The notes below the pieces were generated by a model, which did not search any database, had not been told where the DNA came from, and saw only the letters and a list, made by a program, of their open reading frames with translations. DNA of 64,000 bases from a virus (taxonomy: Duplodnaviria; Caudoviricetes), in the IMG/VR virus record IMGVR_UViG_645058824_000001, positions 1 through 64,000 of that record; one strand, given 5' to 3'. This document shows, piece after piece, positions 3,149-35,821 of the stretch (its first letter is position 1; each line of letters begins with the position of its first letter). A program made the position numbers and the translations under genes.

Positions 3149-3336
3149 GGGTTCGGCGACCACGCTGGGCTGTCGCCACTGGGCACCCAAGGGACGCGTC
3201 AGGTGAGGCACCGCCCGGGTCCCGCCGTCGGACGGCCACCGCTGCGCCCCTGGTGTGGAGGCTAGGCGGCTCTGAGGGGGCGCGTGCTGCGCAGTCACGC
3301 ACGGGACGCCTCTGCCAGCCAGGATGCCAGAGCGGT

Positions 3337-3984
3337 CTACGGTGCGGGCTCGTATTCCACGGTGTCGTCGCACCCGGCGGCCAGGCGTTCCAGGGTCGCG
3401 CGCTCGGTGTCGTCGACAGTCAGACCCCAGCGGAGTTTCGTCGACACCCAGTCCACGGTGTACGTGCAGTGCGCGTCGGTGTTCGGCGGCAGCCACTCCG
3501 CCGGGTCCTGGTCCGCCTTGCTGCGGTTGGTGCGGGCCGTCACCGCGACCAGGCTGCGTTCGGCGTCGAGGTCGTTGGCGTAGGCCTCCCGGCGCTGCGC
3601 CGTCCACGCCGAAGCACCCGAGTCCCACGCCTCCGCGAGCGGCACCACGTGGTCGATGTCCAGCCCGGACGGGACAGTCACCGTCACACCGTCGTAGTAG
3701 GACAGCCACTCCCCCGCCGTCACCCGACACCCCGGCTCCACCATCGGCGCAACCAGCGACTCGGCCAACAGCACCTCCATGCGGGTGTTGCAGCCGTCCC
3801 GGTCGGAGTCCACCCAATGCCGGAACTGGTCGCGGCTGTAGCCCTCGCGGGACTCGTCCGCAGTCGGCAGCGCGGCCACCGCGTCAGCGAGCGGCAGTGA
3901 CACCGGAGCGGCGGAAGCCGGCGTCGCCAGAGGCAGGATCAGGAGGGCGGCGGCAAGCAGGCCGCGCACAGTCGTCTTGAGCAT
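3337..3984 (-). CDS. secreted HNH-type nuclease (DUF1524-like)
   Basis: Signal peptide ending PASA-A; GCNTR, DIDHVVPLAEAWDSGA, ANDL, NRSKADQDP motifs. Confidence 0.85.
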   Translation of the reverse strand: MLKTTVRGLLAAALLILPLATPASAAPVSLPLADAVAALPTADESREGYSRDQFRHWVDSDRDGCNTRMEVLLAESLVAPMVEPGCRVTAGEWLSYYDGVTVTVPSGLDIDHVVPLAEAWDSGASAWTAQRREAYANDLDAERSLVAVTARTNRSKADQDPAEWLPPNTDAHCTYTVDWVSTKLRWGLTVDDTERATLERLAAGCDDTVEYEPAP

Positions 3985-4089: not shown

Positions 4090-4440
4090 TCAGGGAATCG
4101 GGACGCTCGTGCACGTCGGGTCCTCCACGCACTCGTCGATCTTCCGACGGTTCTCCGCGCTACGTTCCAACAGCGCCTGCGAGTACATCCCCAACTGGTC
4201 GGGCAGGCCCTCGCACACGGCGGGTCGCTTCTCGAACTCGACCTCCTCGCCGGGCGACTCGACCATGATGGCCAGCCACTCATCGATGCACACCTGCCGC
4301 GCTGCGGCTTCCGACAGGCTCGGCGTCGCCGTCACCGTCTCCGTCACTGCAGGCTGCGGCTTGTCACTTTCGCTGTCGCTGCTGGAGCAGCCGGCCAGCG
4401 TAAGACAGGCGGCGGCGAGCAGAGTGATGGTGCGGCGCAT
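4090..4440 (-). CDS. lipoprotein
   Basis: MRR + hydrophobic stretch + lipobox LAG-C, Ser/Thr linker. Confidence 0.8.
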   Translation of the reverse strand: MRRTITLLAAACLTLAGCSSSDSESDKPQPAVTETVTATPSLSEAAARQVCIDEWLAIMVESPGEEVEFEKRPAVCEGLPDQLGMYSQALLERSAENRRKIDECVEDPTCTSVPIP

Positions 4441-4776
4441 GATGTCCCCCAGTAGTGCGCGGTACTGAAGAGCGGATCGTACCGACGGGACCTGCGCGAC
4501 GAGGCGGGAACAGCAGAAGCCCCGCCGAGACGGGGGAGCCCGGCGGGGCTCCAAGCAGTGTGGCACGAGGGCTGGCAGGACGGGCGGCTTCCACGTAGCG
4601 TGTCCGGGCGGCCTGCCTCGTTCGCAGCGACCCCTCCGGGGGCGTGGGGACTACCCCGCTGGCAGGCCGCGCCCGACGTACAGGGGAGGCGCCATGAGCA
4701 GCGACACCGGCTGGGGATGAACCCCCAGACAGCGCGACGCCCCCGCAGCCAGTCGGCCGCGGGGGCGTCGTCGCGC

Positions 4777-4944
4777 TCAGGCGTCGCCGTCTTCCTTCTC
4801 CTGCTTCTGGATCAGCTCGTCATAGAGGGCTTGGATGCGTGCGTTGGCTTCGGGCGATAGAGGCTTCTGCCAGGTGATCTCGCCGGTCTCGTACCAGATC
4901 TCCATCCAGTCCCGCGGGCGCTCCTCAGGCGAGTCGTCGCTCAC
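4777..4944 (-). CDS. hypothetical protein (55 aa; not in the ORF track)
   Basis: GTG overlaps the recombinase stop; MSDDSPEERPRDWMEIWYETG... Confidence 0.55.
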   Translation of the reverse strand: MSDDSPEERPRDWMEIWYETGEITWQKPLSPEANARIQALYDELIQKQEKEDGDA

Positions 4945-6104
4945 TGCGTCTCCTGCCCCTCGGTCGGCGTAGGTCGGAAGCGGTCGGTGATTCCTCCGAA
5001 GAGGGCTTCGGCGGCGTCGACGTGGGCGGCGTTGCGTTGTCCCTTGTTACGGCGGTTCCAGTAGCCGACGGTGGTGGCGGGGTTGTCGTGGTCGGCGAAC
5101 GCTTGGACCTCTGCCAGCGGTTCCCCTGCGTCGAGCATGTGGGTGATGCGGCTGGCGCGGAGGACGTGCGGGGTGAGCTTCCGGCAGACCTTGCACTTGG
5201 TGAAGGTGTGCCCTGGCTTGTCGACGGTGGGGCAGGTGAGGACGCGGGCCTTGCGGCCGAGGCGGGTGAGGAGTCGGGCGACATCATGCCGGTCCAGCCG
5301 GCGGCCGTCCTTGTCGAGGAGGAGCGGCCCTTCGGTGCGGCCCGCGGTGTGGGCGTCGAGGAGTTCGGCGACGGTGGTGGGGAGCGGGAGGATGCGTTCC
5401 TTGTGTTCCTTGCGGGTGACGTCGAGGTAGGAGCGGCGTCCGCGTTCGATCCTCTTGGTGACGTCGGCGGCGACCATCTCGGTGACGCGTCCGGCGAGGG
5501 TGTAGAGGAGGAGAACGATGAGGGCGTCGAACTCGTTCTCTGCGGCGTTGGCAACGGCCTTCACCTCGTCGACTTCCAGGACGGGGGTGCTGCGGGAGGT
5601 GTTGCCCTTGTCGACCTTGGGTCGGTCGTCCTGGGTGACAGGGTTCCGGGGCAGGTCGATCTTCTCGGCGGCGTAGGTGTGCAGCGAGGAGAGCGCGTTG
5701 AGGTAGCGGGAGATCGTGGTCGACGGTACGCCGCGGCCCTCCATCCGCAGGCGCCATGCGCGGATGTGGTCCGGGTTGAAGATGCCGAGGGCGAACCGCT
5801 CGTGACCCAGCTCCTGGGCGTATCCGCCCCAGACGCGTCGGATGTCGTCCACGTAGTTGCGTTTCGTTTGGAGGCTGCCGCGTCGGGTGGAGGACAGCCA
5901 GTCCATGACCATGACGAAGGTCTCTGGGGTGACGGCTTCGGCGAGGAGTTCGGCGCGGGGCCGGTAGATGCGCTCCTGTCCACGGCGGTCGACTTGGACG
6001 AGGCCGAGGTCGTCGACGAGCTTGCGGCGGACTTCCTCGAAGAGGTCCGAGCCGGGCAGCGCGATCGACTGCCCGGCGGACTGCTGTGGCAGGTTCAACG
6101 TCAC
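4941..6104 (-). CDS. tyrosine recombinase (XerC/Cre-like)
   Basis: Catalytic R (AGRVTE), K (TRKEHK), HxxR (PHVLRAS), H (DHDNP), Y (TTVGY); core-binding domain; GTG overlaps the HAD gene stop. Confidence 0.93.
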   Translation of the reverse strand: MTLNLPQQSAGQSIALPGSDLFEEVRRKLVDDLGLVQVDRRGQERIYRPRAELLAEAVTPETFVMVMDWLSSTRRGSLQTKRNYVDDIRRVWGGYAQELGHERFALGIFNPDHIRAWRLRMEGRGVPSTTISRYLNALSSLHTYAAEKIDLPRNPVTQDDRPKVDKGNTSRSTPVLEVDEVKAVANAAENEFDALIVLLLYTLAGRVTEMVAADVTKRIERGRRSYLDVTRKEHKERILPLPTTVAELLDAHTAGRTEGPLLLDKDGRRLDRHDVARLLTRLGRKARVLTCPTVDKPGHTFTKCKVCRKLTPHVLRASRITHMLDAGEPLAEVQAFADHDNPATTVGYWNRRNKGQRNAAHVDAAEALFGGITDRFRPTPTEGQETQ

Positions 6105-6652
6105 GCCGCCGCCTCGGACAATCCAGCCGCCCACTTGGTCAGCGCCTCGAAGTCTTCGGGTAGCAAGCCGAGCCGAGGGTCCACGTGGTGCAGCAGGGCG
6201 GGGCCGCTGTGGTGGCGCTGCACGTAGTCGCGATCCAGATCGGTGACTTCGTCGTCCACCCACGCGAAGGGGCGTCCGGCCGCGTACTCCACGATGGTCT
6301 TGGTCTTCCAGTGCACTGCGGGCGGCGCCTTCCAGTACGGACTCGACGGCGGCTTCTCGTCCGGCCATTCGATGACGGGCAGCGGAGGCAGGCCGATGTG
6401 CGGGCCGATCCACTCGTTGGCCTCGTGCATCCAGGTTGTAGCCCAGACGAGAGAGAAGGGCAGCGCGAGGAGTTCCGCGCCGTGTCCGTGGTTCAGCCAG
6501 ACCCTCAAGGGCTTCTGGTACGGCTGCTCCCAGCCGCTCGGACGCATTCGGTGCGTGCTGTACCCCTCGGGGCGTCGAGACGGTTTGGCCATCCATGGGT
6601 TCAGAGGGCCGTCCACATCGAGTAACAGCAGTGGTGGCGTGACGGTTTCCAT
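6101..6652 (-). CDS. HAD-superfamily phosphatase (Swiss-army-knife RNA-repair-like)
   Basis: LLLDVDGPLNP motif I, WATTW, WKT, AWVDDE. Confidence 0.85.
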   Translation of the reverse strand: METVTPPLLLLDVDGPLNPWMAKPSRRPEGYSTHRMRPSGWEQPYQKPLRVWLNHGHGAELLALPFSLVWATTWMHEANEWIGPHIGLPPLPVIEWPDEKPPSSPYWKAPPAVHWKTKTIVEYAAGRPFAWVDDEVTDLDRDYVQRHHSGPALLHHVDPRLGLLPEDFEALTKWAAGLSEAAA

Positions 6653-6674
6653 ACCTCACAGGGTATCAATTTTC

Positions 6675-6701
6675 TAGCGCATAAGGGAACGTTATGCGCT
6701 A
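6675..6701. other. candidate tyrosine-recombinase site (dif/lox-like)
   Basis: TAGCGCATAA-GGGAACG-TTATGCGCTA: perfect 10-bp arms with an asymmetric 7-bp spacer, in an AT-rich patch upstream of the HAD-recombinase operon. Confidence 0.6.
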
Positions 6702-6776
6702 TCTCTGCGGATGAGGCCCTGCTGACAAGGCGCCCCGTCTTCGGCAGACTCGCGGCGCTGGAACGCGAACGAAGGG

Positions 6777-6965
6777 GTGGACATGGCAGAGCTCAGCTAC
6801 GAGCAGCTACAGGCGCGGGCACTCAGCAACTTGGACAACGCTTACGGCGAGAGAGCCGGCTCTGACGATCAGGTGGCGGCCCTCACGAGGGCTCAGGTGC
6901 ATGCCCTGCTGACGGTCGGCGCGGCAATGAAGGATCTGGCGCAGGCAATCCGCGAGGGCCGCTAG
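6777..6965 (+). CDS. hypothetical protein
   Basis: 62-aa helical ORF followed by a terminator. Confidence 0.55.
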   Translation: MDMAELSYEQLQARALSNLDNAYGERAGSDDQVAALTRAQVHALLTVGAAMKDLAQAIREGR

Positions 6966-6974
6966 AACGAGCTG

Positions 6975-7021
6975 CGCCCCCGCTCCCCCGTCGTGACGGG
7001 CTGGAGCGGGGGCGTTGTCGT
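6975..7021. terminator. hairpin terminator (copy A)
   Basis: CGCCCCCGCTCC/GGAGCGGGGGCG + TTGTCGT. Confidence 0.7.
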
Positions 7022-7100
7022 GTCACGGCTCGGTGACGGACGGCTACCTGTAGGGCGTGTGTGGTCTACGGTGATCCGACGTTCAACCTTGGGGGGACTC

Positions 7101-7718
7101 ATGCGCACACGCGCTACCGCGGCTGTGGCCGCGATGCTTCTGGCGGCTCTCACCGCATGCGGCGGCGGGGACGACAGTCCGACGGCGGACACGAAGCCGT
7201 CCGCGGTCGAGACGCCGGGCGGGGAGCCGACGTCCGGGCAGGTCGAGGAGAGTATGAAGCTCGGCGAGCCGGCCCAGACAGTCGGTGACGGCGGCGAGGG
7301 CACGCTGGAGATCACGCCGGACACGATCGTCTTCGTGAAGGAAGGCGGCGGCGAGACCTCGGAGAACGGTACCTTCGTCGTCGTCACGATGAAGGACAAG
7401 GTGACGTCGGACGTCGCCGCGGATGAGCCGGCGCCGATCACGGGCGGGGGCTGGAAGTGGATGGCCCCGGACGGGGAGATGATCGGCTTCGATAGCGGCA
7501 ACTCGTCCGGGGTGGTGATGGACAAGTACAACAACGCCGACCCCGTCCAGCCGGGCGCCTACCAGTGGCGGGCCCAGGTCTTCGACCTGACGGAGGAGCA
7601 GGCGAAGGGGGGCACGCTCATCTACATCGACGGCGAGGAGAAGGCGCACCGCTGGCAGATGCCGTCCACCGACAGCGGGCCGAACGTGGCCGAGGTGAAG
7701 AAGCAGCTGGAGTTCTGA
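7101..7718 (+). CDS. lipoprotein (possibly DUF4352-like beta-sandwich)
   Basis: Lipobox LTA-C after MRTR + hydrophobic stretch; GGGGGA RBS. Confidence 0.8.
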   Translation: MRTRATAAVAAMLLAALTACGGGDDSPTADTKPSAVETPGGEPTSGQVEESMKLGEPAQTVGDGGEGTLEITPDTIVFVKEGGGETSENGTFVVVTMKDKVTSDVAADEPAPITGGGWKWMAPDGEMIGFDSGNSSGVVMDKYNNADPVQPGAYQWRAQVFDLTEEQAKGGTLIYIDGEEKAHRWQMPSTDSGPNVAEVKKQLEF

Positions 7719-7729
7719 GCACAGCGAAG

Positions 7730-7779
7730 CGCCCCGCTCCCCCACCGCTGATGCGGCGGGAGGAGCGGGGCGTTGTCGT
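7730..7779. terminator. hairpin terminator (copy B)
   Basis: CGCCCCGCTCC/GGAGCGGGGCG + TTGTCGT. Confidence 0.7.
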
Positions 7780-7956
7780 TCAGGCGGGTTCGTCGGGCCT
7801 GTATCCGTCGGGCAGGTCGGGGTAGACCGGCTCCTGGAACGGGTTCGTGGCTGGTGCGGGGATCGGCTGGGGTTCCTCGCGTCCGAGGCGGACCAGGCTG
7901 CCGACGTCGGCGGCAGTGTCGTCACGGCGCGGCTGCAGCGGAACGGCTTCCGGCAT
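7780..7956 (-). CDS. small Pro-rich protein at the end of the lysis cassette
   Basis: ATG immediately after the upstream stop. Confidence 0.55.
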   Translation of the reverse strand: MPEAVPLQPRRDDTAADVGSLVRLGREEPQPIPAPATNPFQEPVYPDLPDGYRPDEPA

Positions 7957-7957
7957 G

Positions 7958-8320
7958 TCAGACTCCAGTTCGGTTGTACTCGTCCACCAGAGGATGCGCG
8001 GGCTCTGGCTCGATCCCGGCCCGGTGCATCTGGCGGGCCCACCGGTCCGTCGTCCAGGCAAACGCGCGCACGATCTGTTCCAGGCGCGACATCTTCCCCC
8101 TCAGCTGCCCGTTCTCCTCATCCACGCGCTTCACGGTCGCTTCGAGGACCGCGAAGTTCGCGGCCTGCTGGGCAGGCGCGGCGTTCGCTCGGGCCGCTGC
8201 TTCGGTCGCTGCTGCGGTAGCCCTGGCCGCGTCTCGGGTAGCGCGGGAGATCCACCAGCTGCCTCCGCCGAGAACGCTTCCAGCGGCTCCGATGATGCCC
8301 GCCCACTCGGCCACGTTCAT
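7958..8320 (-). CDS. single-TM plus coiled-coil lysis-cassette membrane protein
   Basis: N-terminal TM, then heptad region LEATVKRVDEENGQLRGKMSRLEQIV; overlaps the upstream stop. Confidence 0.7.
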   Translation of the reverse strand: MNVAEWAGIIGAAGSVLGGGSWWISRATRDAARATAAATEAAARANAAPAQQAANFAVLEATVKRVDEENGQLRGKMSRLEQIVRAFAWTTDRWARQMHRAGIEPEPAHPLVDEYNRTGV

Positions 8321-8757
8321 GGCGCCTTGCCTCTCCGGGGCCGCGGAGCTGGGGGGACCGAGTATTCGGGCACCGTGGCCGCCCAACATATGACCCCGAT
8401 GTGCGAGGTGAGATACCAGATCGCGACGAAGCCGCCGCGGGAATACTCGCCGGTTAAGACGGCGTATGCGTAGGCGATTGCCCACACTGCGGGGGGAGTC
8501 AGGGCCGCACGGAAGCCGAGCTTGTCACGGCCGATCTGGAGGAACGCGGAGAACCCGGTGATGAGCCCGGCGGTGATCCACAGCCATGCCCAGTGGCGGA
8601 GTCCGCAGAACTGGGTGAGGAGTTCCAGGCCGTTGTCGGGGGGTGGGTCGACGAGGAACGACACGCCCCAGCAGGTTTTGCCGACGCCCAGGATCAGCAG
8701 GAAGACGCCGCGGCGGCCCAGGGCCTTGTACAGCCGCCGGGCCGCACGGCACCGCAT
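8317..8757 (-). CDS. multi-TM (about 4) lysis-cassette membrane protein; contains a TTA codon
   Basis: Hydrophobic segments; ATG overlaps the holin stop; TTA at 8455-8457. Confidence 0.72.
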   Translation of the reverse strand: MRCRAARRLYKALGRRGVFLLILGVGKTCWGVSFLVDPPPDNGLELLTQFCGLRHWAWLWITAGLITGFSAFLQIGRDKLGFRAALTPPAVWAIAYAYAVLTGEYSRGGFVAIWYLTSHIGVICWAATVPEYSVPPAPRPRRGKAP

Positions 8758-9122
8758 CAGACCGCCCGGGGCGGCTCGGCCGTGGCCGGCGCGGACGGGG
8801 CGGTCGGCGTGACCTGCACCCGGGTCAGCAGCGTGAGCAGCGCGAGGACGACGGTGTTGATGGCGCCGACGGTCTCCTGGCTGACCTCGTAGCCGAACGT
8901 GCCGACCAGGACGGCGCCAGCGGCGACGACGGTGGTGAACGCCTGCGGGGCGATCGGTCGGGTCATGGCGGCGGCGATCGCGCCGAGGATCGCGGTGGCG
9001 ATACCGACGATGGCGCCGGCCATCTCCGCGGACAGCGGCGTCACGCCGAGGGAGACGACGAGGCCGAGGACCGCGGCGAGGGTGTTCAGAACGACGACCG
9101 GTTCTCTGCCGAAGATCTTCAT
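8757..9122 (-). CDS. holin-like membrane protein
   Basis: MKIFGREPVV start typical of actinophage holins; multiple TMs; directly after the endolysin. Confidence 0.75.
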   Translation of the reverse strand: MKIFGREPVVVLNTLAAVLGLVVSLGVTPLSAEMAGAIVGIATAILGAIAAAMTRPIAPQAFTTVVAAGAVLVGTFGYEVSQETVGAINTVVLALLTLLTRVQVTPTAPSAPATAEPPRAV

Positions 9123-9125
9123 GGG

Positions 9126-10220
9126 TCAGGCTCCCTTGGTGACGGCCGCGCGGAGCTGCGCGACCTCGGTGCGCAGCGCTTCGAGCTGCTTGAGGATGGC
9201 GTCGGTGTTCTCGGCGGCGCGCCTGCTGTGGGCGTAGCCGGAGCCGAGGGCCGTGTTCACGGCGATCTTTCCGTCTTGGAGGCCCTTGTCGGCGGGCCAC
9301 TGCTTCTTCACCCAGTCGCCGATGGTGACCTGGTCGCTGAGCTTCATGTCGCTCTCCGTGGGAGTGGTGGGCGGCTTCGACGGCGCGGGCGCGCTGGCGG
9401 CCTTGGGGATGGTGAGCTTCTGGCCGGGGGTGATCCGGTACGGGCTCGTGATCCTGTTGGCCGTGGCGATGTCGGGCCAGGGCACGCCCAGCGCGTCCCC
9501 GATGCGGGACAGGGTGTCGCCGGACTTCACGGTGTAGGTGCCGCCCGCCGCGGGCTTCTCGTCGCCCTTGGCGAGTTGGATGACGCGGGCGAAGTTCATA
9601 GCCCCGGGGTCGCCGTGGTCGTTTTCGGGGACGTGCTGGTGTCCGCACCAGCCCTTGAAGGTGCGCCACTGGGCGAAGGTCATGCGGGCTGGGTTCGCGC
9701 CGTAGGAGGCGGGGGTGACGCCGGGGCGGCGGGAGTCCTTGCCGTAGGCGAGCCAGTCCTTCACGCAGGTGAGCGGGATGCCGTGGTGCTGGTTGAGCCA
9801 GCGCACCAGCCAGGCGACCTCGGCGAGCGCCCAGTCCGGGGCGGTCGGCCAGTGCAGGTAGTCAACACCCGCGCGCTTCCCGGACCACGTCTTGGCGTAC
9901 TTGTCGTCGCACGTGCCGACGAGCTCGATCTGGAAGACGTTCGCCGTGTTGGTCTCCACCTCGCCGAGCTTGTTGGCGAGGGCGCGGGCGGACTCGTCCA
10001 CGTCGAAGTGCTGGTACCAGCGGATCGTGCGGTCCTTGATGTTGGGCACGCCCGTCACGGTCGGGGCCATGGAGCCGCCGTTGTACGAGGGGAGGTTCAT
10101 GCCCTCGGTGGTGTGGACGACGCCGCAGTTGACTTCCATGTCGGAGCCGGAGTAGCGGCCGGTGCCGTAGAAGTAGGCCTGCGAGGCTCCGGGGATCTTC
10201 TGGGGCCCAGTCTTGGACAT
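9126..10220 (-). CDS. endolysin: Zn amidase + LysM domain
   Basis: VVHTTEG ... GHQHVPENDHGDPG amidase motifs; LysM YTVKSGDTLSRIG...ITPGQKLTIP. Confidence 0.92.
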   Translation of the reverse strand: MSKTGPQKIPGASQAYFYGTGRYSGSDMEVNCGVVHTTEGMNLPSYNGGSMAPTVTGVPNIKDRTIRWYQHFDVDESARALANKLGEVETNTANVFQIELVGTCDDKYAKTWSGKRAGVDYLHWPTAPDWALAEVAWLVRWLNQHHGIPLTCVKDWLAYGKDSRRPGVTPASYGANPARMTFAQWRTFKGWCGHQHVPENDHGDPGAMNFARVIQLAKGDEKPAAGGTYTVKSGDTLSRIGDALGVPWPDIATANRITSPYRITPGQKLTIPKAASAPAPSKPPTTPTESDMKLSDQVTIGDWVKKQWPADKGLQDGKIAVNTALGSGYAHSRRAAENTDAILKQLEALRTEVAQLRAAVTKGA

Positions 10221-10241
10221 GATCCCCCCTTTCTGGGCTGG

Positions 10242-10829
10242 TCAGGTGGTGCGGAGGAAGGTGATGTGGAAGCGGAGGTTGGTGCCGCCGTCGATGTCGT
10301 CGTTGGCGGTGCGGAGGGTGACGATGCCGTCGGTCCCGATCACGAATCCGCCGTGGACGATCCCGTTGTCCCAGCAGCCGGTGATGGTGCTGTGAGTCGG
10401 CCGCCACGCCGACGGCACGGTCGCCGCGACCAGGTCGGGCAAGTTGCCGTTGACCAGGGCGAGCTTGCCGCCGGTGCGGGTCAGATACAGGTCGATGCTG
10501 ACGACCTTGCCCTGCCGATGCCCGAAGAAGTCGAGGACGCTGAACCCGGCCGCTGCGGACAGGCCTGTGGTGCTGGTGACCAGCGACGGCTCCGGCGTCA
10601 CCCAGGCGCTGCCGTTGTAGATGTCGAGGCGGTTGGCGTCCTTCAGCCAGGTCGCCATGCCCTCCTCGGGAGCGGTGAGAGTCGCGCCTCGCTGCGAGGC
10701 GGACGCAAACCACATCAGGGTGTGGGGGATGATCCCGTCGGCGAGTGCCTGCGCGGCGCCGGGGATCGACGGCGGGTCCGTCATCTGCCAGACCTGGACG
10801 TTCTGGCCGTACTTGTCGGGCGCGGTCAC
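10242..10829 (-). CDS. minor tail / tail-tip protein
   Basis: Last gene of the tail module; beta-rich C-terminus. Confidence 0.65.
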   Translation of the reverse strand: MTAPDKYGQNVQVWQMTDPPSIPGAAQALADGIIPHTLMWFASASQRGATLTAPEEGMATWLKDANRLDIYNGSAWVTPEPSLVTSTTGLSAAAGFSVLDFFGHRQGKVVSIDLYLTRTGGKLALVNGNLPDLVAATVPSAWRPTHSTITGCWDNGIVHGGFVIGTDGIVTLRTANDDIDGGTNLRFHITFLRTT

Positions 10830-20294: not shown

Positions 20295-20882
20295 TCAGGA
20301 CCCCGTGTAGTCCGAGGTCTCCGGCACCCGGTCGAAGTGGTACACGGTGTTGCCCGCCTCGTCGGGGTACGCGGTGATCGTCCACTCGTAGGCGATCGCT
20401 TCGTCCTGCTTGTTGGTCACGTCACTGCGCTCGGTGATCTCGCCCTGCGGGACGTAGAAGCCCCGCTGGAAGTTGTCGCCGTCCAGGACGACGAACCACC
20501 AAGCGCGACGGTCCGGGGCCGGGGACGCGGTCTCCGCGTAGGTCGTCAGACCGGCGGTCGGCTGCAGGTCCGCGACGTCCAGCCGGTACTGCAGCGACTG
20601 CACCGTGGTACGGGCCGTCTCCCACGCCGTCAGCGAGAACGTCCGCAGCGACGACGTGATCGTGGTGCGGATCGGCGCCGTGAACCCCCACGGGGTGAAG
20701 CTCTCGGAGTCTTCGTCGAAGCCCTGGACCAGGCCGTCGTCGCTGATCGCACCGAGCGGCGCCCACGGGGCCAGCGGCTGGATCTCCGGGTCCCCCGGCG
20801 AAGTCGTGCCCAGCGGAGCGACCCACGCCCCGCCGTTCGCTCCGATGCCCAGCAAGTCCGCTGCGCGGGTGATCTGAACCAT
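20295..20882 (-). CDS. major tail (tube) protein
   Basis: WVAPLGT...LGAISDDG...TPWG; ends in Ser (SDYTGS*). Confidence 0.88.
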   Translation of the reverse strand: MVQITRAADLLGIGANGGAWVAPLGTTSPGDPEIQPLAPWAPLGAISDDGLVQGFDEDSESFTPWGFTAPIRTTITSSLRTFSLTAWETARTTVQSLQYRLDVADLQPTAGLTTYAETASPAPDRRAWWFVVLDGDNFQRGFYVPQGEITERSDVTNKQDEAIAYEWTITAYPDEAGNTVYHFDRVPETSDYTGS

Positions 20883-20957
20883 GATGTCTCCAGACATGCG
20901 TGAAGCCCGCGCACGGGCGGGAACTGATGGGGCACGGCGCGGGCCCAAAACCGGTCG

Positions 20958-21338
20958 TCAGGAGACCGGGTGGAAATAGATCTCGTAGGTAGCGCCCATA
21001 CGGCGCAGGGAGGGATTCTCGTAAGGCCGCCAGGCGGGCGCCGAGATCGTCGCCACCCGACCGAAGACGGCCTTAGCGGTCTGGACACCGCGCAGGCGCT
21101 CGACCAATTCGTGACGTGTCCGACGAGCCAGCAGCGAAGCGCCGGCCCGGTCTGCGGCATAGCTGTCGACTGTGACGAGGGCGCGGTCCAGGCGGATGCC
21201 GTCGTCCTCGCCGCCGATCCGCTGCACTTGGTTGACCGGCAGCACCTCAAGCAACTTGGCTGGCAGGTCGGTGACGTGCCGCACGTTGAGGGCCGCGTTG
21301 AGGCGTGCGATCAGCTCGACCTCGATGTCCGGCCACAT
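20958..21338 (-). CDS. tail terminator protein
   Basis: Position and size; VQRIGG.D...ALVTVDSYA. Confidence 0.75.
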   Translation of the reverse strand: MWPDIEVELIARLNAALNVRHVTDLPAKLLEVLPVNQVQRIGGEDDGIRLDRALVTVDSYAADRAGASLLARRTRHELVERLRGVQTAKAVFGRVATISAPAWRPYENPSLRRMGATYEIYFHPVS

Positions 21339-21664
21339 CAGTTCGACCCACCCGTCTGTGCCGCCCGCAGCAGGACATGGTGGGCGGGGACGCGTTCGGT
21401 TCCGTACTCCACCCAGCGGGCGTAGTAGGCGGTGTTGCGGACGTAGGCCACGGCACGATCCCGGCGACGGCCGCCACGGGCAGTGCTGTCCGTCTCCCAG
21501 CTCGCCTTGTAGTGGCCCGGGTCAGGGCTGTTCTCGTCGACGGGTGACGTTGCTTGGGCGATCGTCTTGATGCGTTCGGCCCGGCGCAGCATCTCCGCCT
21601 GCATGCCCGGCATCCGCAGCATCTGCCCGATGCCCTTCCGCTTCACCCTGAATCTGGCAGCCAT
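21338..21664 (-). CDS. HK97 gp10-like neck protein
   Basis: SPVD...GHYKASW...YARWVEYGT. Confidence 0.8.
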   Translation of the reverse strand: MAARFRVKRKGIGQMLRMPGMQAEMLRRAERIKTIAQATSPVDENSPDPGHYKASWETDSTARGGRRRDRAVAYVRNTAYYARWVEYGTERVPAHHVLLRAAQTGGSN

Positions 21665-21676
21665 GACTCCTGCCTC

Positions 21677-22027
21677 CTATCCAGTGACGAGCTCGAGAGC
21701 GGCAACGACAGGACCGGCCGAGCCAGTGAACGGGGACCGGAACGAGCCCGGCAGCCCCTCGACCTCGTACAGCTCCCCACCTACGCGGACCCGGTCGGTT
21801 GCCCGGATGTCGGTGCCGTAGGGGGCGTACAGGATGAGGCCTGTGATGACGGTGTCGCGTGCATCGGTGAGCTCGGTGGATGCCCCTGCGCCTCCCCGGG
21901 GGGCGATGGCGCAGCCGGGCACCGGGATCTCGACGGGAGGACCCGGTTTGTCGTTGCCGTACTCGTCCTGTGTCGACGGGCCGGGACGGACGATGGTGAC
22001 GGCGTCACCGTGCGGCAGCTCGCGCAC
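21677..22027 (-). CDS. head-closure (stopper) protein
   Basis: QDEYGND...LYAPYGTDIRATDRVRVGGELYEVEG. Confidence 0.8.
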   Translation of the reverse strand: MRELPHGDAVTIVRPGPSTQDEYGNDKPGPPVEIPVPGCAIAPRGGAGASTELTDARDTVITGLILYAPYGTDIRATDRVRVGGELYEVEGLPGSFRSPFTGSAGPVVAALELVTG

Positions 22028-23024
22028 CGGCCACCTCCTCCACCGCGGTGCACCACGCGTCCAGATCCTGAGCGGGATCGAGTTCGGCGCTGCGAGCCCG
22101 TGCACGCTTGGAGGCGAGCCGGTACTCGGCCGCGTCCGTCAGGAGCCGTTGCAGAGCCGTCACCCAGGCCTCGGTGTCGTTGCGGTCGACGAAGATGCCG
22201 GCCTCACCGAGGGATTCGCACAGGCCGCGGGTTGGGTGAGCCAGCACCGGAATGCCGGACGCCATGGCCTCCACGCCGGTGCGACCCCACGATTCGTACC
22301 GTGACGGCATGAGCAGCACGCGGGTTCGGCGGTAGACCTTGGCGGCCATCTCGTCACCGGGCACATGGCCGACGATCTCCACGTTCGGCAGGTCCGGCAG
22401 GAGCTGCTCTCCGTAGGCGCCTTCCACCGCGAGGAACTGCTGATCGGGCATCCGCTGCGCCAGTTCGGCGAGTAGCCGACCGCCCTTGTCCTCGTTGCAG
22501 TTGATGAGCGTCACGGCCTGGCCCGGTTTCGTCGCGTACCGCTTCGCGTGCACCGGCGGGCGCACGACCAGGGTTCGTTGCGGCTTGACGCCAGCCGGGA
22601 ACTCGGCGAAGAACAGGTCTGCTTCGCTGCTCATCCACTGCGAGTTGTAGACGGCCAGAGCGGTCGCCCCGGACGCCACGTCCCGCAGGGTCGGACGGTG
22701 GTCGTTGTGGCAGACCACCACCATCGGCTTCCCGAACCCGCGGGCGAGCGCCGCCGTAGTGGGCACGCACTCCAGGTGAGAAACGAGGACGTCCGCCCGG
22801 CGAGCCTGGGACGGGAAGTCCAGGCGAGCCGTCGACGGCACCACCCGGATGCCGTCGTACTCGTAGACGTCGACCGCCCTGGCCCGCCGCGACAGCCACA
22901 CCTCCACGTCGTGCCCCCGCGCTGCCAGGGCCTGGAGCATGCAGGCGAGCATGTGCTCGGCACCGGCGTTGTGTTCGGGAGGCATCGCGTGGACGCGGGC
23001 CACGATCCGCAGGGGCTTGCTCAT
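22005..23024 (-). CDS. GT-B (family 4-like) glycosyltransferase B
   Basis: HAMPPEHNAGAE, LAARGHDVEV, donor motif ESWGRTGVEAMASGIPVLA. Confidence 0.92.
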   Translation of the reverse strand: MSKPLRIVARVHAMPPEHNAGAEHMLACMLQALAARGHDVEVWLSRRARAVDVYEYDGIRVVPSTARLDFPSQARRADVLVSHLECVPTTAALARGFGKPMVVVCHNDHRPTLRDVASGATALAVYNSQWMSSEADLFFAEFPAGVKPQRTLVVRPPVHAKRYATKPGQAVTLINCNEDKGGRLLAELAQRMPDQQFLAVEGAYGEQLLPDLPNVEIVGHVPGDEMAAKVYRRTRVLLMPSRYESWGRTGVEAMASGIPVLAHPTRGLCESLGEAGIFVDRNDTEAWVTALQRLLTDAAEYRLASKRARARSAELDPAQDLDAWCTAVEEVAGARAAAR

Positions 23025-23653
23025 CGCCACCTCGCCATCGTCATCCCGGCCTTGCGCCGGTAGCCGGCGAGTTCGAGCATGCGCCGGTCGTCGTCGGTCA
23101 TCGTGACCGCGGTCCCGACCCCTGACCCGTCTGTGCGGTAGCTGTAGGGGCCGATCGTCTCTCCGGTGACGCCTCCTGCCATGGTGGGCGAGGTCAGGGT
23201 GCGCAGTGCCATGCGGGCCACCACGGCGACGACGTCAGCGGGTACCTCGGCTGCGCCGTGGCTGTAGGTCACCCGGTAGGTGCCGGGGTAGGACTCGTAT
23301 TCCTCGTCGGCCCAGAGTTCCGGCAGGTTGATGGCGGGGCTCTCCGGCGCCGTGCGAATGGTGTCGATGCCGTCCCAACGCCAGCCGACCACGGGCAGGT
23401 CGGGAGCGCCGCCCGCGCCCACGGCCACAACAGCGGTGACACCCAGGACGGGCGTCTGAGGGAGACGGATCTCTCCTTGCTGGGCGCGCACGACGACGGT
23501 GTCGTCGTCGGTGCGGCTGAAGGTTCGGCCCGTGTAGGACCGGACGAGCGCCGAGGCGTCCGCGAGTAGCGCTTGGGCTCTGGTTTCTTCCTGCGCCGTC
23601 AGGGGGCGTCCGAGCCGGTCTTGGAGATCGGTGACGCTAGCGAGGGGTTCCAC
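23021..23653 (-). CDS. head-to-tail adaptor
   Basis: LASVTDLQDRLGR...LLADASALVR...VTYSHG...ETIGPYSY. Confidence 0.85.
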   Translation of the reverse strand: MEPLASVTDLQDRLGRPLTAQEETRAQALLADASALVRSYTGRTFSRTDDDTVVVRAQQGEIRLPQTPVLGVTAVVAVGAGGAPDLPVVGWRWDGIDTIRTAPESPAINLPELWADEEYESYPGTYRVTYSHGAAEVPADVVAVVARMALRTLTSPTMAGGVTGETIGPYSYRTDGSGVGTAVTMTDDDRRMLELAGYRRKAGMTMARWR

Positions 23654-24650
23654 GCTTGACCACTCCCTCCATGGCCGTGCACCAGGCGTCGAGCTCGGTT
23701 GCTGGATCGAGCGCTGTGGCGCGGCCCGTCGATGCCTTCGATGCCTGCTTGTAGACGGAAGGTGCGGACAGCCGTCGGATGGCGTCCTCCCACGCGTCCA
23801 GGTCGTCGCGGTCGCAGAAGGTTCCCGCCTCGGCGAGTGCCTCCGTGAGGCCGGGCGTCGGATGCGCGATCACGGGGATCCCAGAGCACATGGCCTCTGC
23901 CGCGACACGGCCATAGGACTCGTACACCGACGGCACGAGAAGGAGCTTGGTGCGGGCGTACACGTCTTTCGCCATGCGGTTGCCGGGCGTGTGCGGCATG
24001 ATCTCCACGTTCGGCAGGTCATCGCGGATGATCTGCTGCCCGTAGCCGCCGACCACGCCCAGGAACTTGCGGCGCGGCATCCGCTCCGCCAGAGCGTAGA
24101 AGACCTCCGCGCCCTTCTCCGCTGTGAGGTTGATCAGTGTGATCCGGTCCCCGGGAGTCGCCCGGTAGTCGTCCACGGCCACCGGAGGGTGCACCGTGAT
24201 ACCCCACGGCATCGGACGATCTCCCCGGTGAACCCGCCACCAGGCTTCCGCGTCCGCCCTCATCCACGCCGTGTTGTACACCACCAGCGTGGGTGAGCCC
24301 TTCACCAGCCACGCCTTCGACTTCTCGAAGGTGTTGTGCAGCAGGTGCACGACCGGGATGCGGTGCAGCTCTCCCAGCACGGACGCCCGGGGTGTGTTCT
24401 CCAGATGGGTCACGATCGCCTGCGCGCGGCTGGCGCCCCGCAGCCACGGCCCGGGGTCGCTCTTGCCGCGGTACGGGTGCACGCGAACACCGTCGATCTC
24501 GTAGGCGTTCTCCGCCGCCGCAGGCTGCGACAGCAGGACATCCACGTCGTGGCCGCGCGCAGCGAGTTCCCGCAGCAGGCTGTGAGCCGCCCACTCAGCT
24601 CCAGCGTTGTGCGCTGGAGGGTAGGCGTGCAGCATCGCCAAGACCCGCAC
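23637..24650 (-). CDS. GT-B (family 4-like) glycosyltransferase A
   Basis: HAYPPAHNAGAE, LAARGHDVDV, ESYGRVAAEAMCSGIPVIA; GGAG RBS before the GTG. Confidence 0.92.
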   Translation of the reverse strand: MRVLAMLHAYPPAHNAGAEWAAHSLLRELAARGHDVDVLLSQPAAAENAYEIDGVRVHPYRGKSDPGPWLRGASRAQAIVTHLENTPRASVLGELHRIPVVHLLHNTFEKSKAWLVKGSPTLVVYNTAWMRADAEAWWRVHRGDRPMPWGITVHPPVAVDDYRATPGDRITLINLTAEKGAEVFYALAERMPRRKFLGVVGGYGQQIIRDDLPNVEIMPHTPGNRMAKDVYARTKLLLVPSVYESYGRVAAEAMCSGIPVIAHPTPGLTEALAEAGTFCDRDDLDAWEDAIRRLSAPSVYKQASKASTGRATALDPATELDAWCTAMEGVVKRGTPR

Positions 24651-24706
24651 AAGGACTCCGATCTGCGCCTGGCCGACAGCCGGATGGGCTGCCGGCCAGG
24701 CCCGGG

Positions 24707-25654
24707 TCAGGACGCGGCCGTGGTCGTCTGCACCGCGGCGAACGGGGACCGGGTCGCCGCGGTGGTGTTGAGGCGGGTCGCCGGGTTGGCCGTGGCGAAC
24801 GCCACCCGCATCACCACGCGCATGGCGACGGAGTCCTGCTGCATCAGGTTGAGGACGACCTTGCCGTCGTCGTCGGAGATGACGCCCTCGGTGAACAGCT
24901 TGAAGCTGATGTCCTGGCGCACGCCGACGATCGCCTTCGACCAGTCGCCCATCAGCAGCTCGGCCTCGGACATGTCCCAGGCGCCGTTGGTGAGCTCCGA
25001 CATCGGGTAGCCGTACAGCGTGCCGCCCAGGCCGCCCTGCAGGTTCGGCTGGTAGATCGGCACACCCTGCTCGGACCGCATGGTGTTGAGCTTCCACGTC
25101 AGGCCGGGCCGGCTGATGAACCCGTTGACGGCGAAGCCGTCCGCGGCGACCTTCCCGGCGGCCTCCGCGACGTCGACGGCGAAGTCGACGCCGGTGCCGG
25201 AGATGACGGTGTTGCCCGCCGCGACCGCGGACTGGTAGACGGCGGCCGGCCACGTGGACGGCTTGTCCAGGCCGAAGAGACCCGCGGCGTCGAGCTTGGC
25301 GCCGATGGCCTCCACGAGCCGGGGGCGGACCTCGTTCCAGATGGGCATCTGGGCGTCGTCGAGGTACGCCTCGGGGATCGGGACGATCGCGGCGATCTCC
25401 TCGGCGACGAGGTCGACGTTCTTCCAGTCCTGCGCCGTCGTCTGCTTCAGGCCGGTGTCGCCGCCCACGAAGTACGCCAGCGGCAGCACGTCGAGGACGG
25501 GCTGGCGCTGCGTCTTGGACGACATCGGCACCCGGCGGGCGCGCTGCAGCAGCGCCGAAGCGCCCGGCAGCTCCTGGATGATCTCCGCGGACACCGGCTC
25601 CGGAACGAGCGGGTCGTTGCTGGCGTCCCGGCTGATGAGCGAGTTGAAAGGCAC
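24707..25654 (-). CDS. major capsid protein (HK97 fold)
   Basis: LVPEPVSAEIIQEL, IAAIVPIPEAYLDD, LLMGDWS, NLMQQDSVAMR; ends in Ser (TTTAAS*). Confidence 0.93.
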   Translation of the reverse strand: MPFNSLISRDASNDPLVPEPVSAEIIQELPGASALLQRARRVPMSSKTQRQPVLDVLPLAYFVGGDTGLKQTTAQDWKNVDLVAEEIAAIVPIPEAYLDDAQMPIWNEVRPRLVEAIGAKLDAAGLFGLDKPSTWPAAVYQSAVAAGNTVISGTGVDFAVDVAEAAGKVAADGFAVNGFISRPGLTWKLNTMRSEQGVPIYQPNLQGGLGGTLYGYPMSELTNGAWDMSEAELLMGDWSKAIVGVRQDISFKLFTEGVISDDDGKVVLNLMQQDSVAMRVVMRVAFATANPATRLNTTAATRSPFAAVQTTTAAS

Positions 25655-35063: not shown

Positions 35064-35261
35064 TCAGTGCTGCCGCTGGTGCCGTTCGGCTTCAGCGATC
35101 AGCTCGGGCAGGGATGGGCTGTAGTCCTTGGGCCACCAGCGGACGTCACCGCGTCCAGCAGTCTGGGAGCACTGGTCGCAGGTGAGGGCGACGATCGGAG
35201 CGTCGACGGACGGTTCGTCGGCGCAGACCCGGTAGCCGTCGAGCCCTTCGACTCCGCTCAC
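35064..35261 (-). CDS. hypothetical protein
   Basis: GTG overlaps the MTase stop; CDQC. Confidence 0.5.
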   Translation of the reverse strand: MSGVEGLDGYRVCADEPSVDAPIVALTCDQCSQTAGRGDVRWWPKDYSPSLPELIAEAERHQRQH

Positions 35262-35821
35262 GTCCGCGTCCACCACCAGCACCCGAGCGTTCCGCCACGG
35301 AACGTCTCGACCTTCCCGCCGAGACTCGCCATGACGGCGTCCATGTCGTCCGCATCCCACTGGTGCAGGTGCGCTTCGTGCGGGTTGCCGTCCACCTCAC
35401 CCTGCGGGCTGTCGACGATCGGCACGGACACGAGGATGTGGTTGGCGCCGGGCGCGTCGTCCGGGCCCTCGACGATCCGCTCCAGCAGGGCGACCGCATC
35501 CTCGCGGGGCAGGTGCTCGAGGACGTCGCCTGCGACGACGAGGTCGCGGTGGAAGAGGTGGGCGGGAGCCTCACGCGCGTCCATCACGTGGATCTCGTCG
35601 TACATCTTGCGAGTCTTCGTGGAGTTGAGGCGGTACTTCTTGATGTACGGCCGGTGCACCTCGATGCCGGTCCACCACACGCCGGGCTCGTCGGGCTCGT
35701 GCGGCCGGAACAGCTTGGCGTAGGTGCCTTCGCCGGGACCGATGTCGCACACGGTCTTCGGCAGGTGGCGCTTAAAGCGTTCGAGGGACCAGTCCTTGCC
35801 CTCGGCGTCACTGGTCGGCAT
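35258..35821 (-). CDS. class I SAM-dependent methyltransferase (small-molecule/glycan type)
   Basis: Motif I DIGPGEG, GIEV, DLVVAGDVLEHL; no DNA-MTase NPPY/DPPY/PC motif. Confidence 0.85.
   Translation of the reverse strand: MPTSDAEGKDWSLERFKRHLPKTVCDIGPGEGTYAKLFRPHEPDEPGVWWTGIEVHRPYIKKYRLNSTKTRKMYDEIHVMDAREAPAHLFHRDLVVAGDVLEHLPREDAVALLERIVEGPDDAPGANHILVSVPIVDSPQGEVDGNPHEAHLHQWDADDMDAVMASLGGKVETFRGGTLGCWWWTRT

Follow-up and report, generated by a model that had tools for sequence, protein, structure and literature searches.

Which acceptor is served by two glycosyltransferases whose genes lie within the head-connector operon of a Streptomyces prophage? The question is raised by the stretch of DNA analyzed here (the window), which makes up the first 64 kb of a provirus of 82 kb in IMG/VR (record IMGVR_UViG_645058824_000001; 100% complete according to CheckV; about 69% GC) whose close relatives are Streptomyces prophages. 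Behind the gene of its major capsid protein (MCP), the genes of two glycosyltransferases (GTs), named GT1 and GT2, flank that of a head-tail adaptor (Ad1). An earlier note, made from the sequence alone, had read this arrangement as a virion glycosylation pathway. Comparison with relatives supports this reading and turns it into a strong prediction: with a probability of about 70%, the phage encodes its own system for the O-glycosylation of virion proteins. The support comes from the conservation of the GT slot behind the capsid gene, from Ser-terminated tails that track the GT, from the likeness of these termini to those of the mycobacteriophages Che8 and Corndog, and from the coupling of the genes within one operon. 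In the following, GT1 and GT2 denote the two proteins and their clades, and enzyme families are named as such (for example, family GT2).

The two glycosyltransferases

GT1 and GT2 are paralogues that share 47% identity. Both contain the H.xPP.HNAGAE and LAARGHDV motifs from which the earlier note had recognized a pair of GT-B enzymes, and this part of it is confirmed. All Pfam domains of GT1 (Glyco_transf_4, Glycos_transf_1 and Glyco_trans_1_4: 36.7, 46.2 and 51.4 bits) score above the gathering score. The C-terminal domains of GT2 reach 60.9 and 69.6 bits, and its N-terminal domain falls just below the cut-off (27.9 versus 28.5). Both proteins also match phrog_26352, which is annotated as 'unknown function', and all NCBIfam equivalogs remain well short of their cut-offs. 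PF20706, a GT4 model of conflict systems, scores 35-40 bits, below the generic family GT1 models for the same region. A role in anti-phage defense was considered and rejected, given the virion-operon context and no PADLOC match. A transmembrane segment was found in neither GT1 nor GT2, so that both appear to be soluble proteins of the cytoplasm.

The active-site motifs were compared in an alignment of 33 sequences from the GT1 and GT2 clades. Lys182-Gly183, Tyr245, Glu254 and Gly259/Pro261 are invariant. Glu246, which forms the EX7E motif together with Glu254, and the N-terminal H..PP.HNAGAE loop are kept in at least 90% of the sequences. Since the EX7E motif, the Lys-Gly motif and the loop are preserved in both clades, GT1 and GT2 both look catalytically competent. 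The AlphaFold2 (AF2) model of GT2 displays two Rossmann-like domains in the GT-B arrangement (mean predicted local distance difference test score, pLDDT, 93; predicted template modeling score, pTM, 0.90). Its best solved matches in Foldseek are MshA, PimA, BshA and PglA (probability 1.00, TM-score up to 0.76), to which the sequence identity amounts to 14-22%. MshA is a mycobacterial mannosyltransferase, and all four are GT4 enzymes known as retaining. GT1 and GT2 are classed by sequence as GT4 (GT-B) enzymes, a family regarded as retaining, and are predicted transferases of nucleoside diphosphate (NDP)-sugars. The modeled fold implies a soluble NDP-sugar transferase and says nothing of the acceptor.

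The GT2 clade of a maximum-likelihood tree (support 97/98) includes not only the sole GT of the common single-GT prophages but also the GT that comes second in two-GT phages. GT1 belongs to the other group, which always adjoins a capsid gene of the window type. The GT2 of the window nests with the sole GTs of the single-GT prophages (70-79% identical) and shares only 54-60% identity with the GT2 subclade to which most other two-GT phages belong (loci L163-L193 compared). This grouping suggests that the head-connector block has undergone mosaic exchange, with phage lineages recombining inside it. In total, 1,571 homologous proteins were found at E <= 0.001, so that the family of Streptomyces prophages concerned is very large. 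JGI annotates homologues as 'glycosyltransferase involved in cell wall biosynthesis'.

A conserved slot behind the capsid gene

The position of the GT genes was followed with several independent queries. With GT2, 80 IMG/VR loci were found, three of which share the two-GT layout of the window. The others carry a single GT2-type gene directly after another capsid type (25% identical to that of the window), followed by a different adaptor and then by the same genes from head closure (Hc1) to tail tube. When this common capsid type served as query, a GT was located directly downstream in 78/78 relatives; the search returned relatives of at least 78% identity only, all of them GT-positive. With the window capsid, about 35 loci at 77% identity or more were recovered with the order MCP-GT1-Ad1-GT2, and wherever such a relative includes enough downstream DNA, its capsid gene is followed by a GT. 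Deeper relatives of this capsid (L194, L199 and L201) contain GT1 only. The same order recurs in these approximately 35 independent loci and in one Streptomyces prasinopilosus genome, and the layout is therefore not due to chance.

A search that did not depend on the GTs was performed with the tube protein in 401 Streptomyces genomes. It yielded 15 close homologues, so that about 4% of the sampled genomes carry this one lineage. In 15/15 of these prophages a GT follows the capsid gene (a GT4 enzyme in 14), and in the same 15/15 the tube protein ends in Ser. A tube query of genome contigs returned 14 loci only, all GT-positive, and provides no control. The fifteenth prophage (L104; G080:C1) has a third capsid type (SU10_MCP; 6350-7333, minus strand; ending ..ADSAGS). 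Directly after its capsid gene, the GT4 enzyme is replaced by a 681-aa fusion of family GT2 and Methyltransf_24 (4241-6286, minus strand), the same domain pair as in Che8 gp108. Judged by its domains, this is a non-orthologous displacement, in which another GT family occupies the same slot. Further variants are L249, where a Gly_transf_sug GT and a methyltransferase follow the capsid gene (capsid ..ALGS), and L244, where a GT4 enzyme follows the capsid gene and a family GT2 enzyme plus a methyltransferase follow the portal gene (capsid ..ADLS). The slot is thus kept across differing capsid and adaptor modules, with three capsid types among them.

Two side observations concern other phages. A related metagenomic phage (L246) contains an HNH/NUMOD4 homing-endonuclease gene (3151-3735) between an adaptor-like gene and the GT4 gene. 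L202 encodes a capsid relative that is 66% identical and terminates in ..DLGS; downstream come, in this order, a collagen-repeat protein of 901 aa and a distant Glycos_transf_1 enzyme (6926-9631 and 9628-10791), which may point to a glycosylated collagen-like head fiber.

Ser-terminated tails of capsid and tail tube

The ending of both the MCP (..TTTAAS) and the tail tube (..SDYTGS) in Ser, as described in the earlier note, is confirmed. In the tube protein, the terminal Ser is present in 67/67 homologues, and the preceding residues vary (YTGS, YSGS, DPAS, DPLS, NSGS, TTGS and others). In distant tube homologues, the alignment stops about 12 residues before the end. Capsids of the window type terminate in ..TTAAS or ..THQS, those of the common type in ..TGTPSGS, ..AAGGSS, ..PSGT or, rarely, ..SGSA. 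In the AF2 model of the MCP (overall pLDDT moderate, 72), confidence is good for the conserved strand 305-309 and low for the tail 311-315. This difference fits a free tail formed by the last five residues.

The co-occurrence of GT and terminal Ser was borne out in homologues: the tails track the GT, and the GT-less capsid relatives lack the Ser tail. The GT-less relatives L196 (68% identical) and L204 end in ..PFGVLKTA and ..PFGIIAT, respectively, right after the conserved R..PF strand, and the tube of L196 ends in ..GYTA. More distant GT-less capsid relatives carry long charged extensions of Lys, Arg and Glu in place of the Ser tail. For the tube protein, 12 distant homologues from a library clustered at 50% were looked up, five of which lie on contigs that are too short. 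Of the four Ser-ended homologues with usable contigs, a GT is encoded in the head-tail block of three; L329, the exception, lacks one there and has a capsid with the terminus ..VSPL. The three non-Ser homologues have no GT, and the one identifiable capsid among them (L247) ends in ..LWTA. This comparison goes in the predicted direction, in a sample that is too small for significance by itself. As the GT-linked tube clade represents one lineage, families were counted rather than sequences. GT-bearing operons yielded eight independent families of capsid or tube proteins, and all eight end in Ser, which corresponds to a binomial p of about 1e-5 to 2e-4 at a background of 25-35%.

A host-matched control with distant tube homologues from Streptomyces was discarded: its ten Ser-ended matches lie mostly outside phage head operons, and host genes for P450, ABC-transporter and glycosidase proteins are found upstream; no weight is therefore given to a Fisher test that used it. 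At 18 non-Ser loci, no GT family was present among the 25 of 41 families listed (a pooled count, not per gene). A family of distant tail-tube-like genes (L138, L139, L142, L147, L149, L151 and similar; 22-26% identical, C-terminus ..PLATFLMKDPAYS..) stands for the most part beside host genes, not phage head genes, and could represent domesticated tail-like elements or remnants.

Comparison with known glycosylation systems

Among mycobacteriophages, virion O-glycosylation has been described for Che8 (gp108-110), Corndog (gp35-38) and Myrna (Freeman et al. 2023, Cell Host Microbe 31:1216, as cited in PMC12363180, PMC11600133 and PMC11256854), and the capsid and tube proteins of Che8 and Corndog reportedly carry glycans that phage GTs add (PMC12363180, PMC11600133). 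The capsid and tube proteins end in ..NKTGS and ..YSDGS in Che8 and in ..PLVGS and ..IKGDS in Corndog. The window resembles both phages in that it encodes its own GTs and in that its capsid and tube both have a short tail with terminal Ser (..AAS and ..TGS). As in Corndog, where a methyltransferase and three GTs are located between portal and protease, the GT genes are found inside the head gene block. A methyltransferase is a frequent partner in systems of this type, and it is the domain pair of Che8 gp108 that occupies the slot in the relative L104.

The enzymes themselves are different. Those of the window are GT4/GT-B proteins, whereas Che8 has a family GT2 domain fused to Methyltransf_24, a GT25 enzyme and gp109, which has no Pfam match. 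Families GT2 and GT25 are GT-A classes. Homology of GT1 and GT2 to the Che8 GTs was rejected, as BLASTP against gp108-110 gave no match below E 0.4. The window further differs from Che8 and Corndog in its Streptomyces host, its temperate prophage state and the position of the GTs between capsid and connector genes, where they flank the adaptor.

A closer counterpart is found in the Streptomyces phage TurkishDelight (NC_073473; L001), the only INPHARED match at 80% query coverage or more. Its gp20 (7945-9981), annotated only as 'glycosyltransferase', belongs to the same GT4 subfamily and is 35-39% identical to GT1 and GT2. Here too, two GT modules lie between the genes of the major capsid protein (gp17, ..GSTS) and the major tail protein (gp21, ..CVAS). 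Unlike in the window, however, both modules are fused in a single 678-aa protein. Its capsid and tail proteins are not related to those of the window, and its genome measures 94 kb. A megablast search of the whole region against known phages gave no DNA match.

MshA, PimA, BshA and PglA, the best Foldseek and hidden Markov model matches, share with the window enzymes the GT-B fold, the EX7E motif and the C-terminal domain that binds the nucleotide sugar. Their acceptors are inositol phosphate, lipid, malate and lipid-linked glycan, whereas the acceptor in the window is predicted to be a protein tail.

Proposed mechanism

According to the gene analysis, GT1 and GT2 are translated from the late head-connector-tail transcript along with their proposed substrates. 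In the proposed mechanism, the donors would be NDP-sugars of the host; among the genes scanned, the provirus has none for sugar nucleotides. The C-terminal Ser would then accept the sugar on its hydroxyl, as perhaps would nearby Ser or Thr residues, in the short flexible tails of the MCP (..TTTAAS) and the tube (..YTGS), so that each capsid and tube subunit would bear a glycan at the surface.

The two paralogues may divide the work, with GT1 acting on the capsid tail and GT2 on the ..GS tail of the tube. Alternatively, they may add successive sugars. In single-GT phages, the capsid and the tube both end in ..GS, whereas in the window the capsid tail (..AAS) is unlike the tube tail (..TGS). Because of this dissimilarity, we infer that a division of labor is most likely. 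GT1 would be assigned to the capsid, with whose window type it is always inherited, and GT2, whose clade provides the sole GT in most relatives, to the tube.

A broader interpretation is put forward more tentatively and at somewhat less than even odds. The C-terminal Ser tail would be a portable 'glyco-tag' that is independent of the enzyme family, and the slot after the capsid gene would be a site at which GTs are swapped (GT4, fusions of family GT2 with a methyltransferase, Gly_transf_sug). Virion glycosylation would then be common in temperate phages of Streptomyces, with paralogues that are specialized for capsid (GT1) and tube (GT2).

Points against virion glycosylation and alternative targets

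Several points weigh against the glycosylation of the Ser tails. The case is built from comparison and prediction, from which we infer the glycan on the protein. The GTs have no detectable similarity to Che8 gp108-110 and belong to another fold class, and for these reasons the function is not transferable by homology. Among solved structures, the nearest are those of enzymes whose substrates are small molecules, lipids or glycans instead of proteins. The GT-linked tube clade is essentially one lineage, so that the 15/15 count does not represent 15 independent events. A terminal Ser is also not rare: it is found in 38/150 representatives of the tube family (about 25%) and in 4/21 late proteins of the window, including the tail terminator and the tape measure. 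The terminator ends in ..HPVS in 59/71 homologues and in Ser in 64/71, and Hc1 ends in ..RVTG in 63/72 and in Gly in 72/72. These conserved C-termini are probably structural, and they call for caution against over-reading terminal residues. A few capsids end in ..SGSA or ..SGT, from which it follows that the acceptor need not be the last residue and may be any Ser or Thr among the last few. Finally, the capsid of L198 ends in ..PNAS, with no GT among its capsid, adaptor and Hc1 genes on a contig of only 2.4 kb.

The terminal Ser background of 25% and the Ser-ended terminator and tape measure could be accommodated by an acceptor away from the tails, such as another site of the capsid or tube, the scaffold, the portal, the tape measure or the fibers; the operon placement argues only for a virion-related role. 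Such an acceptor is unlikely, though, given that the tail tracks the GT in capsid relatives, that the terminal Ser is invariant while its neighbors vary, and that the glycosylated proteins of Che8 and Corndog share this kind of terminus. There is likewise only a small chance that the target lies outside the virion, where the GTs would modify the host cell wall, teichoic acid or another host molecule in late infection, for example to block superinfection or the re-adsorption of progeny to lysed cells, and where the Ser tails would be incidental. Many prophage GTs do modify the host envelope, and both the lipid, small-molecule and glycan GT4 enzymes among the nearest structures and the JGI label of the homologues would suit such a target. 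It is harder to reconcile with soluble enzymes without a transmembrane segment and with genes that are translationally coupled between capsid and connector genes instead of lying near the lysogeny or lysis modules. Moreover, three capsid types retain the slot, unrelated GT families have refilled it, and the presence of the GT co-varies with the capsid tail.

Two paralogous GT-B proteins side by side also bring to mind GtfA and GtfB. In that pair, GtfA is the GT4 enzyme that O-glycosylates proteins and its GT-B partner is inactive; together they O-GlcNAcylate serine-rich adhesins of streptococci, which provides a precedent for Ser O-glycosylation of proteins by GT4 enzymes with a paralogous partner. 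That one paralogue of the window would be catalytic and the other a substrate-binding chaperone is nevertheless very improbable. The EX7E motif, the Lys-Gly motif and the N-terminal loop are kept in both clades, so an inactive paralogue was rejected; in addition, a single GT suffices in most relatives, and neither GtfA nor GtfB is among the Foldseek matches listed (ranks 1-50). The proposed substrates differ as well, being short C-terminal tails and not long Ser-rich repeats. Glycosylation of the phage DNA, as by the glucosyltransferases of T-even phages, is scarcely credible, even though T4 beta-glucosyltransferase also has the GT-B fold. No match to PF00303 (the thymidylate-synthase/dCMP-hydroxymethylase family) or PF01702 (TGT/DpdA) was found in the 82-kb provirus, in searches that did match the control genomes. 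The provirus also contains no family GT2 gene, and no DNA-modification function was found among 20 further open reading frames (ORFs) scanned. With no gene for a glycosylatable base and with GT genes that belong to the late structural operon, DNA glycosylation was rejected, and the earlier note's view of it as the less likely option is upheld for the whole provirus.

Organization of the late operon

The genes of the window were called and annotated by codon-position GC and by Pfam and PHROG searches (Table 1). They form an unbroken late operon on the minus strand, which starts with the small and large terminase, portal, MuF/VG15-like protein, scaffold and MCP genes and continues with GT1, Ad1, GT2, Hc1, the gp10-like neck protein, tail terminator, tail tube, chaperones and tape measure. 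This annotation confirms that the GT genes flank the adaptor gene just after the capsid gene. The earlier note had also stated that they overlap their neighbors, which holds at three of the four borders. Ad1 overlaps the end of GT1 by 17 nt, the likelier start of GT2 (ATG 23024) forms an ATGA overlap with the stop codon of Ad1, and the GTG start of Hc1 falls inside the end of GT2. GT1 and the capsid gene, by contrast, are separated: GT1 starts at a GTG with a GGAG ribosome-binding site, 56 nt past the capsid stop. No sigma-70-like promoter or intrinsic terminator was found on the coding strand from the terminase to the tape-measure gene. Together with the translational coupling in a late operon and with good ribosome-binding sites, this agrees with the claimed co-expression with the assembly genes.

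Table 1. Features of the head-connector region and the candidate accessory gene (positions in the window)
Feature	Position	Strand	Evidence and remarks
MCP, HK97 fold, 315 aa	24707..25654	-	PF05065 E 7e-28; phrog_10
MCP, proposed acceptor tail ..QTTTAAS (last 6-7 residues)	about 24710-24730	-	
GT1, soluble GT4/GT-B glycosyltransferase, 337 aa	23637..24650	-	Pfam GT4 N-terminal and family GT1 C-terminal domains; phrog_26352 E 9e-106
Ad1, head-tail adaptor (gp6/Gp19-like) between both GTs	23021..23653	-	phrog_442/137/2377; PF09355
GT2, soluble GT4/GT-B glycosyltransferase, 341 aa (339 aa from ATG 23024)	22005..23030	-	Pfam; phrog_26352 E 3e-152
Hc1, head closure protein	21677..22027	-	phrog_501; start GTG 22027 preceded by GGAGGAGG
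HK97 gp10-like neck/tail-completion protein	21338..21664	-	PF04883; phrog_5
Tail terminator	20958..21338	-	phrog_123
Tail tube (ORF 20295-20948, likely ATG 20882, about 195 aa)	20295..20882	-	PF25681; phrog_117
Tail tube, proposed acceptor tail ..DYTGS	20298-20312	-	
Orphan methyltransferase, small-molecule type, 187 aa; possible glycan O-methylase (tentative; METHYLTRANSFERASE)	35258..35821	-	Weak Methyltransf_25/12/23, below cut-off

A candidate accessory methyltransferase

The orphan methyltransferase of Table 1, which lies 10.6 kb from the GTs, may methylate the glycan. A homologue with 40% identity (E 9e-45) is encoded in the head operon of L244 (2781-3317), between the portal gene and the family GT2 gene. 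Homologues occur in 6/401 Streptomyces genomes, and three of these six reside in GT-bearing prophages, an enrichment compared to 15/401 genomes with such a prophage overall. Since only a minority of the sampled GT-bearing Streptomyces prophages (3/15) carry the methyltransferase, it can at most be an optional accessory.

Novelty and significance

The principle of virion glycosylation is already known from mycobacteriophages, and annotated GTs are known from Streptomyces phages; the abstract of Freeman 2023 is said to mention putative GTs in some of the latter. Virion glycosylation has also been inferred by other authors from the GT genes of further actinophages, for example Rhodococcus phages (PMC13313380). 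Literature searches on virion glycosylation in Streptomyces phages retrieved nothing specific. New elements are the enzyme family (GT4/GT-B, the unannotated PHROG 26352) and the constancy with which its gene follows that of the capsid in a very large group of Streptomyces prophages, as well as the two-paralogue variant and the replacement of the enzyme, within that slot, by members of other GT families.

Phage virion glycosylation has been shown only in a few mycobacteriophages, where it alters the recognition by antibodies. If the prediction is true, the trait is present in temperate phages of Streptomyces as well and involves a second enzyme class (GT4/GT-B) that is unrelated to the first. 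It would then be possible to assign a function to PHROG 26352 and to more than 1,500 database proteins that are labeled 'cell wall biosynthesis' or 'hypothetical'. The convergence of non-homologous GTs on a Ser-terminated tag would provide a simple sequence rule to predict glycosylated virions. The system would also be compact, with one or two soluble GTs and a tag of 5-7 residues, and could be tried as a tool for site-specific C-terminal protein glycosylation or the engineering of phage surfaces. It would finally pose an ecological question, namely what role a sugar coat plays for a soil phage that is never exposed to antibodies; candidate benefits in soil are the shielding of the surface, stability and altered adsorption.

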